The notes beneath the pieces were generated by a model. It made no database searches and was not told the DNA's origin. It saw nothing but the letters and a program-made list of their open reading frames with translations. The position numbers were made by a program, and so were the translations under genes. Below are positions 3,238-12,280 of a DNA stretch of 32,052 nt, one piece after another. The DNA comes from a virus (taxonomy: Duplodnaviria > Heunggongvirae > Uroviricota > Caudoviricetes). The number at the start of each line of letters is the position of its first letter. Within the stretch, counting starts at the first letter, position 1. Location: IMG/VR virus record IMGVR_UViG_2548876861_000008, one strand, 5' to 3'.

Positions 3238-3509
3238 GTATTCGTATTGAAATTGGCGAACATTATGTCGTTACCAGTGACAGCTTTCAGTTTATTCTCC
3301 ACGAGAAAAAGAGAGCTGAAAGCGGTAAAAACGCCGGTCAGGAATGGCTGTCGGTGGTTGGTTATTACCCGAAATTAAGCCAGCTCGTTTCCGGCCTGAT
3401 GCATCACGATATTCTGACCGGAAGCGCAAAGTCTTTTGCTGATTTAAACGCGCAGGTTGAGCAACTCAGCAAGCGTTGTTCAGAGGCTTTTGGCTCATAT
3501 GGCCGTTAA
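3234..3509 (+). CDS. early hypothetical protein (P2 orf83 position)
   Basis: 91-aa ORF immediately upstream of gpA. Confidence 0.45.
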   Translation: MSIRIEIGEHYVVTSDSFQFILHEKKRAESGKNAGQEWLSVVGYYPKLSQLVSGLMHHDILTGSAKSFADLNAQVEQLSKRCSEAFGSYGR

Positions 3510-5775
3510 AGCCTCCGGGCGTTTTGTCCCTCCGTCAGCATTTGCCGCAGGCACCGGTAAGACGTTTACCGGTGCTTATGCATGGAACGCGCCACGCGAG
3601 GCCGTCGGGCGCGAAAGACCCCTTACACGTGACGAGATGCGTCAGGTGCAAGGTGTTTTATCCACGATTAACCGCCTGCCTTACTTTTTGCGCTCTCTGT
3701 TTACTTCACGCTATGACTACATCCGGCGCAATAAAAGCCCGGTGCACGGGTTTTATTTCCTCACATCCACTTTTCAGCGTCGTTTATGGCCGCGCATTGA
3801 GCGTGTGAATCAGCGCCATGAAATGAACACCGACGCGTCGTTACTGTTTCTGGCAGAGCGTGACCACTATGCGCGCCTGCCGGGAATGAATGACAAGGAG
3901 CTGAAAAAGTTTGCTGCCCGTATCTCATCGCAGCTTTTCATGATGTATGGGGAACTCAGCGATGCCTGGGTGGATGCGCATGGCGAAAAAGAATCGCTGT
4001 TTACGGATGAGGCGCAGGCTCACCTGTATGGTCATGTTGCTGGCGCTGCACGTGCTTTCAATATTTCCCCGCTCTACTGGAAAAAATACCGTAAAGGGCA
4101 GATGACCACGAGGCAGGCATATTCTGCCATTGCCCGTCTGTTTAACGATGAGTGGTGGACTCATCAGCTTAAAGGCCAGCGTATGCGCTGGCATGAGGCG
4201 TTACTGATTGCTGTCGGGGAGGTCAATAAAGACCGTTCTCCTTATGCCAGTAAACATGCCATTCGTGATGTGCGTGCACGCCGCCAGGCAAATCTGGAAT
4301 TTCTTAAATCGTGTGACCTCGAAAACAGGGAAACCGGCGAGCGCATCGACCTTATCAGTAAGGTGATGGGCAGTATTTCTAATCCTGAAATTCGCCGGAT
4401 GGAGCTGATGAACACCATCGCCGGTATTGAGCGTTACGCCGCCGCAGAGGGTGATGTGGGGATGTTTATCACGCTGACCACGCCGTCAAAGTATCACCCG
4501 ACACGTCAGGTCGGAAAAGGAGAAAGTAAAACCGTCCAGCTTAATCACGGCTGGAACGATGAGGCATTTAATCCAAAGGATGCGCAGCGTTATCTCTGCC
4601 GTATCTGGAGCCTGATGCGCACGGCATTCAAGGATAATGATTTACAGGTCTACGGTTTGCGAGTCGTCGAGCCACACCACGACGGAACGCCGCACTGGCA
4701 TATGATGCTTTTTTGTAATCCACGCCAGCGTAACCAGATTATTGAAATCATGCGTCGCTACGCGCTCAAAGAGGATGGCGACGAAAGAGGAGCTGCGCGA
4801 AACCGTTTTCAGGCAAAACACCTTAACCGGGGCGGTGCTGCGGGATATATCGCGAAATACATTTCAAAAAACATCGACGGCTATGCACTGGATGGTCAGC
4901 TCGATAACGATACCGGCAGGCCGCTGAAAGACACTGCCGCGGCTGTTACCGCATGGGCGTCAACGTGGCGCATTCCGCAATTTAAAACTGTTGGCCTGCC
5001 GACAATGGGGGCTTACCGTGAACTACGCAAATTACCTCGCGGCGTCAGCATTGCTGATGAGTTTGACGAACGCGTCGAGGCTGCACGCGCTGCCGCAGAC
5101 AGTGGCGATTTTGCGCTGTATATCAGCGCGCAGGGTGGGGCAAATGTCCCGCGCGATTGTCAGACTGTCAGGGTCGCCCGTAGTCCGTCGGATGAAGTTA
5201 ACGAGTACGAGGAAGAAGTCGAGAGAGTGGTCGGCATTTACGCGCCGCATCTCGGCGCGCGTCATATTCATATCACCAGAACGACGGACTGGCGCATTGT
5301 TCCGAAAGTGCCGGTCGTTGAGCCTTTGACTGTAAAAAGCGGCATCGCCGCGCCTCGGAGTCCTGTCAATAACTGTGGAAAGCTCACCGGTGGTGATACT
5401 TCGTTACCGGCTCCCACACCTTCTGAGCACGCCGCAGCAGTGCTTAATCTGGTTGATGACGGTGTTATCGAATGGAATGACCCGGAGGTCGTGAGGGCGC
5501 TCAGGGGCGCATTAAAACACGGACTGAGAACACCAAATCGTCAGCAAAGAGCCGGAAGCCCGTTAAAACCGCATGAAATAGCGCCATCGGCCAGAATGAC
5601 CCGGTCGGAACGAATGCAAATTACCCGTATCCGCGTTGACCTTGCTCAGAACGGTATCAGACCGCAGCGATGGGAGCTTGAGGCGCTGGCGCGTGGCGCG
5701 ACCGTAAATTATGACGGGAAAAAATTCACGTATCCGGTCGCTAATGAGTGGTCGGTTTTTTCAGTTAAACAATAA
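3499..5775 (+). CDS. A: rolling-circle replication initiator gpA (nickase)
   Basis: Long ORF; HWHMMLF motif and AAGYIAKYISKN tyrosine region typical of the phage A / phiX174-A initiator superfamily; start at 3499 (MAVKASG) gives about 758 aa, close to recalled P2 A; upstream in-frame ATG at 3457 is also possible. Confidence 0.85.
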   Translation: MAVKASGRFVPPSAFAAGTGKTFTGAYAWNAPREAVGRERPLTRDEMRQVQGVLSTINRLPYFLRSLFTSRYDYIRRNKSPVHGFYFLTSTFQRRLWPRIERVNQRHEMNTDASLLFLAERDHYARLPGMNDKELKKFAARISSQLFMMYGELSDAWVDAHGEKESLFTDEAQAHLYGHVAGAARAFNISPLYWKKYRKGQMTTRQAYSAIARLFNDEWWTHQLKGQRMRWHEALLIAVGEVNKDRSPYASKHAIRDVRARRQANLEFLKSCDLENRETGERIDLISKVMGSISNPEIRRMELMNTIAGIERYAAAEGDVGMFITLTTPSKYHPTRQVGKGESKTVQLNHGWNDEAFNPKDAQRYLCRIWSLMRTAFKDNDLQVYGLRVVEPHHDGTPHWHMMLFCNPRQRNQIIEIMRRYALKEDGDERGAARNRFQAKHLNRGGAAGYIAKYISKNIDGYALDGQLDNDTGRPLKDTAAAVTAWASTWRIPQFKTVGLPTMGAYRELRKLPRGVSIADEFDERVEAARAAADSGDFALYISAQGGANVPRDCQTVRVARSPSDEVNEYEEEVERVVGIYAPHLGARHIHITRTTDWRIVPKVPVVEPLTVKSGIAAPRSPVNNCGKLTGGDTSLPAPTPSEHAAAVLNLVDDGVIEWNDPEVVRALRGALKHGLRTPNRQQRAGSPLKPHEIAPSARMTRSERMQITRIRVDLAQNGIRPQRWELEALARGATVNYDGKKFTYPVANEWSVFSVKQ

Positions 5776-5976: not shown

Positions 5977-6921
5977 ATGCCAACAGTAGTTTCACTTTTT
6001 TCTGGATGCGGTGGTTCCGATGCGGGGGTTTTGAGAGCCGGCTTTGATGTGCTTATGGCCAACGATATCTTGCCGTATGCGCGCGATGTTTATATTGCCA
6101 ATCATCCAGAAACTGATTACATATTAGGCAATATTGCTGATGTAACTACTTTTCCTAAATCTGATTTGCTGGTAGGTTGTTATCCATGTCAGGGATTCAG
6201 CCAGGGTGGTGCGCGTAAAGCCGATCGAAAAATTAATACTCTTTATTTAGAGTTTGCTAGAGCTTTAAACAATATAAAGCCTAAAGCTTTTATAGTAGAA
6301 AACGTGTCTGGTATGGTTAGAAAAAATTTTGAGCATTTGTTATCTGACCAGATCAGGGTTTTTACTGAAGCAGGTTATACTGTTTCCGCAAAAGTTTTAA
6401 ATGCGGCTGAATATGGAGTAGCGCAGGAAAGAAAAAGAATATTTATCGTAGGAATCCGTAATGATTTCAAAGTTAAGTACGAGTTCCCTCAGCCAACTCA
6501 TGGGCCAGCAACTGGCGTCAACTATGTTACTATTAAAGATGCTATAGGGCATTTACCTGAATGGCCAGAAGGTGAATTTTATGATATGGGATTCCATTGG
6601 TATTATATGTCTCGCAATCGTCGCCAGGATTGGGATCAAATTTCAAAGACAATAGTTGCTAATGCAAGGCATATGCCGTTGCATCCTGTCAGTCCTCCGA
6701 TGGAGAAAGTAAGAACTGATGAATGGAGATTTGTTGAGGATCGGAGAGCTCGCAGATTCAGTTTTCGAGAGGCAGCACTATTACAAGGGTTTGAGGATCT
6801 AGTGTTTCCAGAAACAAATGCTGCAAGTCTTGGCATGAAATACACGGTGGTTGGTAATGCAGTGCCTCCGCCGCTTTTTGAAGCTGTAACGAAGGCATTG
6901 CCAATAGAATTATGGGATTGA
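5977..6921 (+). CDS. DNA (cytosine-5)-methyltransferase (Dcm-like C5-MTase)
   Basis: 314 aa; motif I FSGCGG, motif IV PCQGFS, motif VI ENV (FIVENVSGM), QERKR, C-terminal GNAVPPP motif X. Confidence 0.85.
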   Translation: MPTVVSLFSGCGGSDAGVLRAGFDVLMANDILPYARDVYIANHPETDYILGNIADVTTFPKSDLLVGCYPCQGFSQGGARKADRKINTLYLEFARALNNIKPKAFIVENVSGMVRKNFEHLLSDQIRVFTEAGYTVSAKVLNAAEYGVAQERKRIFIVGIRNDFKVKYEFPQPTHGPATGVNYVTIKDAIGHLPEWPEGEFYDMGFHWYYMSRNRRQDWDQISKTIVANARHMPLHPVSPPMEKVRTDEWRFVEDRRARRFSFREAALLQGFEDLVFPETNAASLGMKYTVVGNAVPPPLFEAVTKALPIELWD

Positions 6922-6928
6922 TAAGCTA

Positions 6929-7924
6929 TTAAGGCTCTGGATTTAATGTATAAAGCTCTTCCTCAAATTCGCGAAACCAATCAGAGGTAGTTATCGCTTC
7001 CCATTGGTTTGCCTTATCAAGTAGATATATGATTCTCAACCTATCTAATAATAATACCCCAGCGGTTGCGTGTGTGCTTACCCATTCGCCATTTGCTTCC
7101 CGATAGAAAACAGGCGTGAACATTGTTGATGGATGCTGGAACGCAATTTGGAAATAGGTGGTCAGTTTTAACACGTTAGCCTCTAATGTTTTGCTTGGCC
7201 ACCCTGTTTCTTGTGCACCACATTGACCAAGAATTCCATAGTTGCTAGTTTGACCATCAGGAAATTCCACTGTAGCAATTAGGTCAAACCCGGCATCACC
7301 AGATGTGGGAGCTCTATTTATTTCCCTTGTGTTTAAACTACAAACTCCAAGATCTTTTCCTAAAGTTTGTAGAGCTGTCCGAAGATTTGTTCCATAATAA
7401 TTTTGCCTATCATCGGAGTTAGCATCAAAAATTCTTACGGTGCCATGTGCAGGTAAGAGAGAAATCATTGCTACTTTACATACTCTGGCAAAGCTCTTTG
7501 CCCAACGTTGTGCTGCTCCTTTAATCGACTTAAAGGATCTAAGTCTAGAGCAGCAAAGAAGAAAAACATATATTCGTTGTTGTTGGTTTAGATTTTCTTT
7601 AATAATTATCTCATCACCTGAAATTATAAATGGATATATTTTGCCAAGAGCACTTTCTCTATATTCGAGTTGTGTCCAAACATCTTCGAGTTGCTCTTCA
7701 AAACGATCATTTCTCTCAGCGTCTCCATTAATTTCTTCTTCAGAATTACATTCTTCATCAATTTCTTCAACGCTTGTTATGCCGAATTTTCTTACTGAAT
7801 CTAAATCATTTTTATGTAGTGAGTTACGTCCGGTATAATTAATTACCGTGAGTAACTCGGCTAAATCTGCAAACAAATGAGGAGAGTTGGGATGCATAAC
7901 TCCTACTTCAAAAGTCATCATCAC
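6929..7924 (-). CDS. hypothetical protein, second gene of cargo operon; function unknown
   Basis: 331-aa ORF on minus strand, 17-bp overlap with upstream gene; AT-rich codon usage unlike the phage backbone; no motif I can assign. Confidence 0.6.
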   Translation of the reverse strand: MMMTFEVGVMHPNSPHLFADLAELLTVINYTGRNSLHKNDLDSVRKFGITSVEEIDEECNSEEEINGDAERNDRFEEQLEDVWTQLEYRESALGKIYPFIISGDEIIIKENLNQQQRIYVFLLCCSRLRSFKSIKGAAQRWAKSFARVCKVAMISLLPAHGTVRIFDANSDDRQNYYGTNLRTALQTLGKDLGVCSLNTREINRAPTSGDAGFDLIATVEFPDGQTSNYGILGQCGAQETGWPSKTLEANVLKLTTYFQIAFQHPSTMFTPVFYREANGEWVSTHATAGVLLLDRLRIIYLLDKANQWEAITTSDWFREFEEELYTLNPEP

Positions 7925-9068
7925 CTCTGCTATTTTTCTCTGCTATTTCAGAACCTATAAGCTTAATATGTTTATTGATTCTTCGTGCTACTTCATGGGC
8001 CTGTCTATCATACTCTACCGTGGCAACCATGCCTGCTGCATCTATCAAAGCTGCTTCAACTTGATAAAGTAACTGGAGAAAGTCCTTAGTAATATCAGAT
8101 GTCAATTGATAGGCAACTGCGAGTGGAGCCCCCATTCGGAATTGCTCCAATGCCTTAGGGCTACTTACAACAGCAGCTAGTTCTCTTAAATTACGTGATT
8201 CTCCTACACGAGTTTTTTTATCCTCGCCTTTTTTATATAACCATTCAGTTAGTTCTTTTATTTCTTTGTTCTTTAAACTCTTAGAATTGATGATAGGATG
8301 ACTTGGTATTGTGTCTCCATCGTCTTCGATTGAAACTCCGACAAACTGGCCTAACCGCTCATCAGCAAGTGCTGTTGATAATACTGAAAATTTAATCGTT
8401 TCTTCATCTAGCTTTTCAATACCATAAAAATCATTTTTTTTAATGATTTCATACACCGCTAAAGCGTCTAGGTTACGCTTGATATGATCCCTACGACTGC
8501 CAATAGCTCTGGCAACCTCATAGTAGCGTAGCATTGGATCCAGATTTGCATTGGTATAATCAAAAAGCTGTTTAATATATCGAGCTTTTGATAAGGGTTC
8601 CCATTGTTTGACACCAGTAATATGTCTGAAACCAAGGTACGGAAGAATCTCTTCTCTTGTTTGGCGCTCAATGACAGGAACACGATCGACCGTATGTTTT
8701 GCATTTGATGCAATTTCTCGTAGTCGAGCACTTGGATTTTCACATAGTGTCGGATCGCGTAATAATTTGACCGCGGATAGGCGACGGTTTCCTTCAACTA
8801 CAATGTACTTCCCCGGCGCTCCACTATCAGGAATGACAATCAATGGTTCTCCAGGGAAAAAACCATTTTCCGCAATAGCACTCATTAGGTCTTCGATAGA
8901 TGTTGAGGTTGCTATGTAGTTAATCATTCCCAATTGGTCACGAGACACGCCTTCAGGAAGTCTTGGGTTTTCTGTGTCAAGTTCCAAATCATCTAGCGGA
9001 ACATAAAGTATTTCTGAATCAGCAATCATCTGGATCTCCGTTGAACATGTCCACGAGAAGGAGCACAA
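7908..9068 (-). CDS. ParB/Srx-fold (ParB N-terminal-like) domain protein, first gene of cargo operon
   Basis: 386-aa ORF; N-terminal region KYIVVEGNRRLSAVKLL resembles the ParB GxxRxxA box; long alpha-helical-looking C-terminal region. Confidence 0.6.
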   Translation of the reverse strand: MCSFSWTCSTEIQMIADSEILYVPLDDLELDTENPRLPEGVSRDQLGMINYIATSTSIEDLMSAIAENGFFPGEPLIVIPDSGAPGKYIVVEGNRRLSAVKLLRDPTLCENPSARLREIASNAKHTVDRVPVIERQTREEILPYLGFRHITGVKQWEPLSKARYIKQLFDYTNANLDPMLRYYEVARAIGSRRDHIKRNLDALAVYEIIKKNDFYGIEKLDEETIKFSVLSTALADERLGQFVGVSIEDDGDTIPSHPIINSKSLKNKEIKELTEWLYKKGEDKKTRVGESRNLRELAAVVSSPKALEQFRMGAPLAVAYQLTSDITKDFLQLLYQVEAALIDAAGMVATVEYDRQAHEVARRINKHIKLIGSEIAEKNSRGDDDF

Positions 9069-9443: not shown

Positions 9444-10478
9444 TCAGCCGTTGTCAGTGTCCAGTGAGTAGTTTTTAAAGCGGATGACCTCCTGACCGAG
9501 CCAGCCGTTTATCTCGCGGATCCTGTCCTGTAACGGGATAAGCTCATTGCGGACAAAGACCTTTGCCACTTTCTCAATATCGCCCAGCGACCCGACGTTT
9601 TCCGGCTTGCCACCCATCAACTGAAAGGGGATGCGGTGCGCGTCAAGCAGGTCAGCGGCGCTGGCTTTTTTGATATTAAAAAAATCGTCCTTCGTTGCCA
9701 CTTCACTGAGCGGGATAATTTTAATACCGTCGGCTTTTCCCTGTGGGGCGTAGAGAAACAGGTTTTTAAAGTTGTTGCGGCCTTTCGACTTCACCATGTT
9801 TTCGCGAAGCATTTCGATATCGTTGCGGTCCTGCACGGCATCGGTGACGTACATGATGTATCCGGCATGAGCGCCGTTTTCGTAATACTTGCGGCGGAAC
9901 AGCGTGGCCGACTCATTCAGCCAGGCAGAGTTAAGGGCGCTGAGATATTCCGGCAGGCCGTACAGCTCCTGATTAATATCCGGCTCCAGCAGGTGAAACA
10001 CGGAGCCGGGTGCGAAGGCTGTCGGCTCGTTGAAGGACGGCACCCACCAGTAAACATCCTCCTCCACGCCACGACGGGTATATTTGGCCGGTGAGGTTTC
10101 CAGTCTGATTACCTTACCGGTGGTGCTGTAACGCTTTTCCAGAAACGCATTACCGAACACCAGAAAATCCAGCACAAAGCGGCTGAAATCCTGCTGGGAA
10201 AGCCACGGATGCGGGATAAATGTCGAGGCCAGAATATTACGTTTGACGTAAATCGGTGAGCTGTGATGCACGGCAGCACGCAGGCTTTTTGCCAGACCGG
10301 TAAAGCTGACCGGTGGCTCATACCATCTGCCGTTACTGATGCACTCGACGTAATCCAGAATGTCACGGCGGTCGAGTACCGGCACCGGCTCGCCAAAGGT
10401 GAATGCCTCCATTTTCGGGGCGCTGGCAGTCATTGTTTTCACCGCTGGCTGCGGTGTTTTCCCTTTTTTCTTACTCAT
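9444..10478 (-). CDS. Q: portal protein
   Basis: 344 aa, same length and position as P2 gpQ; stop/start coupled with P. Confidence 0.9.
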   Translation of the reverse strand: MSKKKGKTPQPAVKTMTASAPKMEAFTFGEPVPVLDRRDILDYVECISNGRWYEPPVSFTGLAKSLRAAVHHSSPIYVKRNILASTFIPHPWLSQQDFSRFVLDFLVFGNAFLEKRYSTTGKVIRLETSPAKYTRRGVEEDVYWWVPSFNEPTAFAPGSVFHLLEPDINQELYGLPEYLSALNSAWLNESATLFRRKYYENGAHAGYIMYVTDAVQDRNDIEMLRENMVKSKGRNNFKNLFLYAPQGKADGIKIIPLSEVATKDDFFNIKKASAADLLDAHRIPFQLMGGKPENVGSLGDIEKVAKVFVRNELIPLQDRIREINGWLGQEVIRFKNYSLDTDNG

Positions 10479-12280
10479 CAGTAAAACTCCAGAATGGTGG
10501 ATGTCAGCGGGGTGCTGATACCGGCGGTGAGTGGCTCATTTAACAGGGCGTGCATGGTCGCCCAGGCGAGGTCGGCGTGGCTGGCTTCCTCGCTGCGGCT
10601 GGCCTCATAGGTGGCACTGCGTCCGCTGCTGGTCATGGTCTTGCGGATAGCCATAAACGAGCTGGTGATGTCGGTGGCGCTGACGTCATATTCCAGACAG
10701 CCACGGCGGATAACGTCTTTTGCCTTGAGCACCATTGCGGTTTTCATTTCCGGCGTGTAGCGGATATCACGCGCGGCGGGATAGAACGAGCGCACGAGCT
10801 GGAACACGCCGACACCGAGGCCGGTGGCATCAATACCGATGTATTCGACGTTATATTTTTCGGTGAGTTTGCGGATGGATTCCGCCTGGGTGGCAAAGTC
10901 CATACCTTTCCACTGGTGACGCTCAAGTATTCTGAATTTGCCACCGGCCACCACCGGCGGTGCCAGTACCACGCATCCGGCGCTGTCGCCACGGTGTGAC
11001 GGGTCGTAACCAATCCATACCGGTCGGGAGCCGAACGGATTTGCGGCAAACGGCGCATAGTCTTCCCATTCTTCCAGCGTGTCGACCATGCAGCGTTGCA
11101 GCTCCTCGAACGGGAATACCGATGCCTTGTCGTCAACAAATTCACACATGAACAGGTTTTTAAAATCGTCGGCGCTGTTTTCGCGTTTAAGCTGCTCAAT
11201 GTCGAACAATGTGCAGCCACCTTTCAGGGCGTCCTCAATGGTGACAATCTGCCGCCACTGGCCGTCCGCACAGAGAAGACCTCCGGCAAGGGCGTTATGA
11301 CTGACGTCGATTTCCACGCGTTCGGCGGCGCTGGCGCGTCCCCGGTTGAACAGTTCACCTGACCAGAACGGGTAGGCGTCGTGCGCCAGCGTGGACGGGG
11401 TGGAGAAATAGGTCGAGCGCAGGTGACTCTGTGAGGCCATACCTGATGCCACCTTACGCAGTACCTGAAAATTCGGGATCCAGAAAATCTCGTCGACGTA
11501 CAGGTCGCCGTTATGGCTCTGTGCGGTGTTGGAGTTGGTGCCGAGAAAAATCAGTTTTGCGCCGTTATTGCCCAGGACAATCGGGTCACCGGTCAGGTCA
11601 ACGTCAACCAGCCGGGCAAAGGCGATGATGTATTCACGGAACACATACGCCTGCGTTTTACTGGCCGACAGAAAAATCTGGTTATGACCGGTTTTCAGGG
11701 CGCGCAGCAGCGCCTCGCGGGAAAAATAAAACGTCGCGCCAATCTGGCGGGATTTCAGGATATCGCGGATGCGGTGCTCAAGCCCGGCGCGATACCAGTG
11801 CAACTGATATTCGAAAGACTGCTCAAAGAAAATCTGCTCCAGCTTTTCGATGGCCTCGTCACTGAAAAAATTCTTTTTCGGTTTGCGACGCCCGCCTTTG
11901 TTGCGGTTAGCGACGTTCGGATTAAGGTCTGCCTCGTTGCCGGTCTGACTGTAACGGTTGACCCGTGCCAGTCGTTCAATCTGGCGTCCGAGCAGGTCAA
12001 TTTCCTTGAAGTCACCGCCGGTTTTCTGCGGTTTGATGATGAGCTGGGTCAGCCGCGCTTCCAGACTCATTTCGACACGGCTGATGGGGGCAACGCTGTC
12101 CCAGCCGTCGCGCTGTTTCCAGCTCTGCACCGTCGGGCGTTTCATCTGCAACATGGCGGCAATCTGCGGCACGGAAAACCCCTGCCAGTACAGCAGCGCC
12201 GCCTGACGACGCGGGTCGTGTAAAAGAGTGGTGTCTGTGGTGATGGTCATGAATACCTCGCCGTGATGAATACACGGCAA
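10478..12280 (-). CDS. P: terminase large (ATPase) subunit
   Basis: 600-aa ORF divergent from capsid operon; length and position as P2 gpP. Confidence 0.9.
   Translation of the reverse strand: MPCIHHGEVFMTITTDTTLLHDPRRQAALLYWQGFSVPQIAAMLQMKRPTVQSWKQRDGWDSVAPISRVEMSLEARLTQLIIKPQKTGGDFKEIDLLGRQIERLARVNRYSQTGNEADLNPNVANRNKGGRRKPKKNFFSDEAIEKLEQIFFEQSFEYQLHWYRAGLEHRIRDILKSRQIGATFYFSREALLRALKTGHNQIFLSASKTQAYVFREYIIAFARLVDVDLTGDPIVLGNNGAKLIFLGTNSNTAQSHNGDLYVDEIFWIPNFQVLRKVASGMASQSHLRSTYFSTPSTLAHDAYPFWSGELFNRGRASAAERVEIDVSHNALAGGLLCADGQWRQIVTIEDALKGGCTLFDIEQLKRENSADDFKNLFMCEFVDDKASVFPFEELQRCMVDTLEEWEDYAPFAANPFGSRPVWIGYDPSHRGDSAGCVVLAPPVVAGGKFRILERHQWKGMDFATQAESIRKLTEKYNVEYIGIDATGLGVGVFQLVRSFYPAARDIRYTPEMKTAMVLKAKDVIRRGCLEYDVSATDITSSFMAIRKTMTSSGRSATYEASRSEEASHADLAWATMHALLNEPLTAGISTPLTSTILEFY

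Follow-up and report, generated by a model that had tools for sequence, protein, structure and literature searches.

A putative restriction-endonuclease-fold protein paired with a ParB-like protein and a C5 methylase in a P2-like prophage of Escherichia coli

PD-lambda-5 is composed of a ParB-domain protein and a Dam-like methylase and protects E. coli against many phages; its cloning needed an mrr-deleted host, and its authors read it as a compact restriction-modification-like system (PMC9519451). Proteins of the ParB fold have also been described as partners of DNA-acting enzymes, as in the ParB-dependent phage dioxygenases and the KorB-KorA clamp (PMC13229309), and ParB/DUF262 sensors are coupled to nucleases (PMC12065111). 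NTP binding by the ParB-CTPase fold is broad, and the preferred nucleotide is not predictable from sequence (PMC12704722).

Here we analysed a prophage gene whose product is paired with a ParB-like protein. This product is probably the DNA-cleaving subunit of a three-gene anti-phage module of the restriction-modification type, carried as cargo in the P2 hotspot. The putative nuclease is not named by any annotation or defence-finder library, and its loci are called at most an orphan methylase and a 'ParB'. Our literature search retrieved no paper on the cassette, on its RefSeq accessions or on the phage Wphi genes orf96 and orf98, and Rousset et al. 2022 do not bring up ParB or a methylase in their main text. 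We read the nuclease family as undescribed and the system as a likely defence that resembles restriction-modification and is built on a subunit of the ParB fold.

The cassette and its coupled gene pair

The window, i.e., the whole stretch of 32,052 nt that was analysed (IMG/VR record IMGVR_UViG_2548876861_000008), is a P2-like (Peduovirus) prophage of E. coli. Between its gpA-type replication gene and its portal and terminase genes lies a 3.3-kb insert with three genes and a GC content of 35-43% (52-59% for the genes on either side). The insert occupies the variable 'defence hotspot' of P2 (PMC9519451). The features of the region are as follows:

3457-5775, plus strand: gpA-type replication gene
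5977-6921, plus strand: C5 cytosine DNA methyltransferase, 314 aa (PF00145, 5.5e-65; TIGR00675)
6922-6928: 7-nt spacer between the stop codons of the convergent methylase and putative nuclease genes
6929-7924, minus strand: putative nuclease ORF as called mechanically, 331 aa, GTG start
6929-7918, minus strand: putative nuclease gene in its likely form, 329 aa, start ATG 7916-7918, stop TAA 6929-6931
7908-7918, minus strand: 11-nt overlap of the ParB-like and putative nuclease genes, the D-F-stop codons lying over M-T-F
7908-9029, minus strand: ParB/Srx-fold partner gene, 373 aa, RefSeq WP_000559725.1 (upstream ORF end at 9068)
8778-8795, minus strand: Box II motif EGNRRL of the partner, invariant
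9444-10478, minus strand: portal gene
10478-12280, minus strand: terminase gene

The putative nuclease gene had first been placed at 6929-7924 on the minus strand, with 331 aa, and this ORF is real: it is not a chance ORF, since 273 homologues were retrieved in one search and 1,246 clusters at 50% identity in an exhaustive profile search. Homologues are about 320-350 aa long and belong to Proteobacteria, Bacteroidota, Planctomycetota and Eremiobacterota; in the distant clusters, all names are 'hypothetical'. Three start codons are candidates (GTG 7924, ATG 7921 and ATG 7918). The last is the likely start because it agrees with the RefSeq protein (WP_000142509.1, 329 aa) and with the N-termini of homologues (MTFEVG.., MIFEVG.. 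and MNFKIG..), and it is preceded by GAGG 5 nt upstream. On the minus strand, the junction reads GCAGAGGTGATGATGACTTTTGAA, also given as GAGGTGATGATGACTTTTGA, with the stop codon TGA of the ParB-like gene at 7908-7910. With a start at ATG 7918 the overlap is therefore 11 nt. The original prediction was thus right about the overlap itself, and its length of 17 bp would apply only with the unlikely GTG start.

Relatives keep this tight junction. The overlap is 14 nt in Pseudomonas, Burkholderia, phage 12474III and locus L035, 11 nt in Methylophilaceae, 8 nt in a Wphi-type locus of E. coli and 1 nt in phage D14A, and the most distant loci present gaps of 6 to 64 nt between the two genes. The annotated start of Wphi orf96, which yields 369 aa and an 80-nt overlap, is probably too far upstream. 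At the other end of the gene, no terminator-like site or hairpin was found in the 7-nt spacer that separates it from the methylase, and in loci L001, L028 and L034 the 3' ends of these two genes abut or overlap by 4 nt. One may speculate that transcriptional interference between the convergent genes helps to set the nuclease:methylase ratio.

The partner has a ParB/Srx N-terminal fold with the phosphate-binding Box II motif GxxRRxxA, whose nucleotide-binding arginines are kept. It also has an HTH region of the ParB type and a helical domain at its C-terminus, and it ends in an acidic DDDF tail. It is highly conserved and resembles the nucleotide-binding switches KorB, PadC and Spo0J. In PADLOC it matched PD-Lambda-5_A (6.6e-29), but the match covers only profile positions 7-277 of 440, and 24 of the 25 listed PADLOC families matched by the partner were PD-Lambda-5_A. 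The terminal F of its acidic tail (...DDDF, 7911-7922, minus strand) is near-invariant in 36 homologues, and the tail is reminiscent of the C-terminal tip of SSB; the DDDF codons overlap the start of the putative nuclease gene, and the conservation of the two proteins is therefore entangled at this point.

The ParB-like gene was found directly upstream of the putative nuclease gene in all loci for which upstream sequence is available. The pair is kept in distant relatives such as orf98/orf96 of phage Wphi, Pseudomonas phage D14A and a Persicobacter plasmid (the only match, and a weak one, in the plasmid collection), and it is also present in loci L032, L033, L036, L037 and L038. Moreover, the two proteins diverge in step: their identities to the copies in the window are correlated across loci (Spearman 0.89, n=23). 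These results bear out the proposal that the two genes are obligate partners.

Linkage to a C5 methylase and proposed function

The locus had initially been described as a two-gene pair, which overlooked the convergent C5 methylase gene that ends 7 nt away. The closest solved relative of this methylase is M.HaeIII (1dct, 1.4e-48), to which it aligns over its full length. A C5 methylase adjoins the pair in 23 of the 28 informative loci, and it does so in four gene orders. In most loci the methylase is convergent and downstream; it is co-directional and downstream in L032, co-directional and upstream in L036 and L037, and divergent and upstream in L033. This linkage spans from E. coli to Eremiobacterota, with identities as low as 25-29%. 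The five remaining loci have no C5 methylase in the available flank: L009 is part of a defence island that includes a type I S subunit, housekeeping genes surround L019 and L021 (L019 also has a PrmC-like protein methylase), L031 is the Persicobacter plasmid and L014 is interrupted by an IS element. No other class of DNA methylase was found in these methylase-less loci.

The linkage is also visible within E. coli. Near-identical alleles of the putative nuclease and of the methylase were each found in 48 complete genomes, as was the whole cassette, and a related methylase was detected in 189-226 of the 5,426 complete genomes. The ParB-like/nuclease pair stands beside the methylase in all four E. 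coli methylase loci that we inspected, where two methylase alleles (~71% nucleotide identity) are flanked by pairs of the 12474 type or the Wphi type. If the other alleles are likewise flanked, about 3-4% of the complete E. coli genomes probably carry some version of the triad.

The methylase is more conserved than the pair, and its divergence is not significantly correlated with that of the pair (Spearman 0.39, n=15). Such decoupling of the methylase from the nuclease is common in restriction-modification systems, and it is also compatible with an independent methylase. Phage Wphi and locus L034 carry a very divergent type of the pair: the Wphi methylase (L027, gene mth) is 76% identical to that of the window, and orf98 and orf96 are only 34% and 25% identical to their counterparts. 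In two Methylophilaceae loci, a gene of the HNH_2 family (PF13391) lies between the putative nuclease and the methylase (L005:7165-7929 and L006:3165-4097), and its product may be a second nuclease that shares the same methylase.

The specificity of the methylase may be GGCC-like, which we consider a lead rather than a result. The enzyme of the window is 35% identical overall to an M.HaeIII-type methylase of locus L038, and ~46% identical to it in the target-recognition region (hand count). GGCC is mildly depleted in the window (O/E 0.72), which is uninformative as a test of specificity. In L038 itself, a distant ParB-like/nuclease pair (L038:2900-6562) lies within a defence island together with Vsr, a true M.HaeIII orthologue (E 2.6e-134 to 1dct), an R.NgoPII-family endonuclease (GGCC) and an AspBHI-like Type IV enzyme.

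Our preferred explanation is that the three genes form a module in which the ParB-like protein and the nuclease would be co-translated and assemble into a complex. The ParB-like subunit could act as a nucleotide-gated DNA loader, clamp or activator, and the nuclease subunit would cut unmethylated incoming DNA. The methylase would mark the DNA of the host and of the prophage, possibly at GGCC-like sites, such that self DNA is spared. A more specific version is a new class of restriction-modification system, in which a nucleotide-gated ParB clamp, and not a helicase/ATPase motor, loads at unmethylated sites or scans from them and delivers or activates a winged-helix PD-(D/E)xK nuclease, with the HaeIII-like m5C methylase providing the self mark. 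We propose this version tentatively and regard it as less likely than not.

The first alternative is that the pair is an abortive-infection or toxin effector: the nuclease would be restrained by a ParB-like sensor or antitoxin and released upon infection to break down DNA indiscriminately, with the methylase as a passenger or an accessory. Translational coupling of two genes is typical of toxin-antitoxin-like systems, and some of the pairs have no methylase nearby. Moreover, PD-lambda-5 was labelled 'RM+Abi' by its authors (PMC9519451), and in Menshen, SspE and GmrSD the sensor is a ParB/DUF262 domain (PMC12065111). However, the adjacency of the methylase in 23/28 loci, in four orders and across phyla, makes a restriction-modification logic more likely than a pure abortive-infection toxin, and the equal occurrence of the nuclease, the methylase and the whole cassette in 48 E. 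coli genomes also argues against this alternative. We therefore regard it as unlikely, although an abortive component alongside restriction-modification is possible.

Predicted fold and active site of the putative nuclease

Direct searches with the protein returned nothing significant in Pfam, NCBIfam, PADLOC or PDB sequences, and PHROGs returned only families of 'unknown function', the match being phrog_3984. The protein had been described as having no recognisable motif, a view that no longer holds: profile, fold and covariation all point to a PD-(D/E)xK domain preceded by a winged helix. The AlphaFold (AF2) model has high confidence (pLDDT 87.9, pTM 0.89). The predicted features of the protein, all on the minus strand, are as follows:

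6932-7531, minus strand: PD-(D/E)xK (restriction-endonuclease-fold) domain, aa 130-329
7190-7426, minus strand: span of the putative catalytic residues, namely K243 (7190-7192), Q232 (7223-7225), D212 (7283-7285), D208 (7295-7297) and D165 (7424-7426)
7544-7918, minus strand: winged-helix-like N-terminal region, aa 1-125
7679-7774, minus strand: acidic segment of variable length, aa 49-80

The N-terminal region resembles generic winged-helix proteins, and six of its residues are invariant in the family (D18, E21, R87, Y95, F97 and Y117). The acidity that had been pointed out in the N-terminal part of the protein is clear: the pI is 4.4 over the first 125 aa, and the segment 49-80 contains 15 D/E for 2 K/R. 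Its length and sequence differ from one homologue to the next, and it has the lowest confidence of the model (pLDDT 67-76).

In the C-terminal domain, the model presents the alpha/beta core fold of restriction endonucleases. The best fold matches were NgoMIV (7.1), LlaBIII (6.7), MspJI (6.6) and AspBHI (6.3), followed by N.BspD6I, HindIII, FokI, SgrAI, NucC, Cfr10I, AgeI and Bse634I. The remote-homology search that had been suggested as a check also pointed to this fold: Foldseek independently ranked MspJI first (E 0.03). The family profile had a single match among PDB sequences, the catalytic motif of MspJI (E 0.023), in which 'SGDgGlDlV...lgQCa' of our family aligns with 'SGDGGVDFI...LGQAKC', and one of 50 distant family members reached Pfam Mrr_cat. 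Each of these fold and motif signals is modest, but they agree. The model thus suggests a winged-helix region followed by a PD-(D/E)xK nuclease domain, and the protein, which had been proposed as the effector of the pair, is most probably a nuclease.

The acidic residues and lysine of a PD-(D/E)xK active site are likely present in a variant form. Based on the model and on a family alignment of 258 members, we predict a site made of D165, D212 (with D208), Q232 and K243. D208, D212 and Q232 are present in 256/258 members. The lysine of the canonical (D/E/Q)xK motif is absent from the protein, which reads QCG instead. Across the family, the lysine is found at position 243 only in 253/258 members and at position 234 only, the canonical QxK position, in the other five; no member of the 258 has a lysine at both positions or at neither. 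The acidic residue behaves similarly: 100 members have it at position 144 only and 157 at position 165 only, with one exception. The placement of D212 and Q232 is consistent with the order of secondary structures in the model (helix 135-152 and strands 159-163, 213-218 and 224-233), which fits the canonical PD-(D/E)xK topology: strand 213-218 begins right after D212 and strand 224-233 ends at Q232. K243 lies in a stretch of lower model confidence (pLDDT 74-79).

These patterns bear on a second alternative, in which the protein is a non-catalytic DNA-recognition subunit made of a winged helix and a degenerate endonuclease fold and the enzyme is the ParB-like protein, a domain historically called 'ParB-like nuclease domain'. 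The missing QxK lysine and the helix-1 glutamate, which is absent from the subfamily of our protein, would be expected in this case, and inactive DNA-binding domains of the restriction-endonuclease fold are known from Menshen NsnA (PMC12065111). Nevertheless, two independent and mutually exclusive relocations, of the lysine and of the acidic residue, suggest that the site is maintained and are hard to square with decay, and D208, D212 and Q232 are invariant. We consider the relocations supportive and not a statistical proof, as each swap may go back to one event in evolution. The resemblance of the ParB-like protein to nucleotide-binding switches further argues against it being the enzyme, and overall this alternative appears quite improbable.

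A third alternative is that the protein is a Type IV-like modification-dependent nuclease, of the Mrr or MspJI style, directed against modified phage DNA, and that the methylase serves the prophage in another way. The best matches of the nuclease domain are indeed MspJI, AspBHI and Mrr_cat, and the layout of a winged helix and a nuclease resembles Mrr. However, the similarity to MspJI is confined to the catalytic core, and no Pfam match to a modified-base-binding domain (SRA-like or Mrr_N) was found in the protein or in 50 family members. In addition, an m5C methylase linked so closely would generate potential target sites in self DNA. The lack of a modified-base reader and the link to a methylase both argue against a Type IV role, to which we give only a slight chance.

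Distribution of the cassette and comparison with known systems

Among the matches listed, the whole 3.75-kb stretch is found again with at least 99.7% identity, and at least 80% of it was found in 48 of 5,426 complete E. coli genomes; Yersinia phage HQ103 also carries it. Several P2-like phages bear the cassette and most do not, and the cassette is also found on integrase islands and at chromosomal sites unrelated to P2. A last alternative, that the genes serve the life cycle of the phage, e.g., by processing, partitioning or modifying DNA for the prophage with the help of ParB, draws on the ParB-fold partners of phage DNA-modifying enzymes (PMC13229309) and on the phage-borne copies, but is very improbable given the absence of the cassette from most P2-like phages, its variable hotspot and foreign GC content, and its occurrence on islands and at non-P2 sites.

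Several side observations were made on the prophages. The P2-like Yersinia phage L-413C has neither a homologue of the putative nuclease nor the methylase and carries a truncated ParB-like gene (L029:3531-4523, 62% identical over 79% of the query), which looks like the remnant of a decayed cassette. In E. coli AMSCJX04, the best-matching genome, the gpA gene is split into four short CDSs in the RefSeq annotation (L007:1123-3075) and several genes near it are annotated as frameshifted, which may reflect assembly errors or prophage decay; the ORF of the window (3457-5775) is intact. Finally, GATC is strongly depleted over the whole window (positions 1-32052), with 31 occurrences where a Markov model predicts ~131 (O/E 0.24). 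This far exceeds the depletion of every other 4-bp palindrome (GGCC, O/E 0.72; CTAG, O/E 0.68).

Beyond E. coli, the cassette is also present in many other phyla. If the preferred reading of a restriction-modification module is correct, the repertoire of restriction enzymes would gain a widespread nuclease family, and the reading would explain the role of the ParB scaffold of the PD-lambda-5 type. It would also offer a tractable E. coli system in which a ParB/CTPase-fold switch controls a nuclease, and a clean natural case of the migration of catalytic residues in PD-(D/E)xK enzymes.

Compared to the nuclease domains of MspJI, AspBHI and Mrr, our protein has the same predicted fold, and its SGDxGxD ... 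GQx motif aligns with D334...Q355 of MspJI at a spacing of ~20 residues. The QxK lysine is replaced in our family (QCG/QCA) and, as indicated by covariation, its role falls to a lysine located nine residues downstream (WPxK). The MspJI, AspBHI and Mrr enzymes are solitary and modification-dependent, whereas our protein has no SRA-like domain and is linked to a ParB-like subunit and, in most loci, to a C5 methylase.

The linkage of an m5C methylase to a PD-(D/E)xK nuclease is instead the arrangement of Type II systems with methylases of the HaeIII family (HaeIII and NgoPII, GGCC). The methylase of the window aligns with M.HaeIII along its full length, including the target-recognition region, although with 35% identity only a shared specificity is putative. 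In contrast to these systems, the nuclease has no sequence relationship with known restriction-endonuclease families and is obligately paired with a ParB-fold protein.

GmrSD, BrxU, SspE, PD-T4-2 and Menshen NsnA belong to the DUF262 branch (DGQQR) and have HNH or other nucleases; they are mostly single-chain and modification-dependent. The cassette differs from them by a canonical ParB-N domain (GxxRR) with a ParB HTH, a separate PD-(D/E)xK subunit and a putative protective methylase. It is similar to the phage T-dioxygenases and to KorB-KorA in that a protein of the ParB-CTPase fold stands beside a DNA-acting partner that requires it or is clamped by it (PMC13229309), but in those cases the partner acts as a dioxygenase or a repressor rather than as a nuclease, and the systems play no role in restriction.

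Finally, like PD-lambda-5, the cassette is borne by an E. coli prophage, is linked to a methylase and encodes a ParB-N homologue, which is the partner and not the putative nuclease. PD-lambda-5 has two genes and no separate effector: its A protein of ~500 aa carries weak DUF4145/HEPN hits in a C-terminal extension, and its methylase is a Dam-like N6-adenine enzyme of the D12 class. The cassette has three genes, with a ParB-like protein of 373 aa, a separate winged-helix and restriction-endonuclease-fold effector that matched no PADLOC model, the PD-Lambda-5_A profiles included, and a C5 methylase (PF00145) in place of the D12 methylase of PD-Lambda-5_B. With a separate effector gene, rather than one fused to the ParB protein, and another class of methylase, the cassette lacks two defining features of PD-lambda-5. 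Judging from the sequences, what the two systems have in common is the ParB scaffold only.
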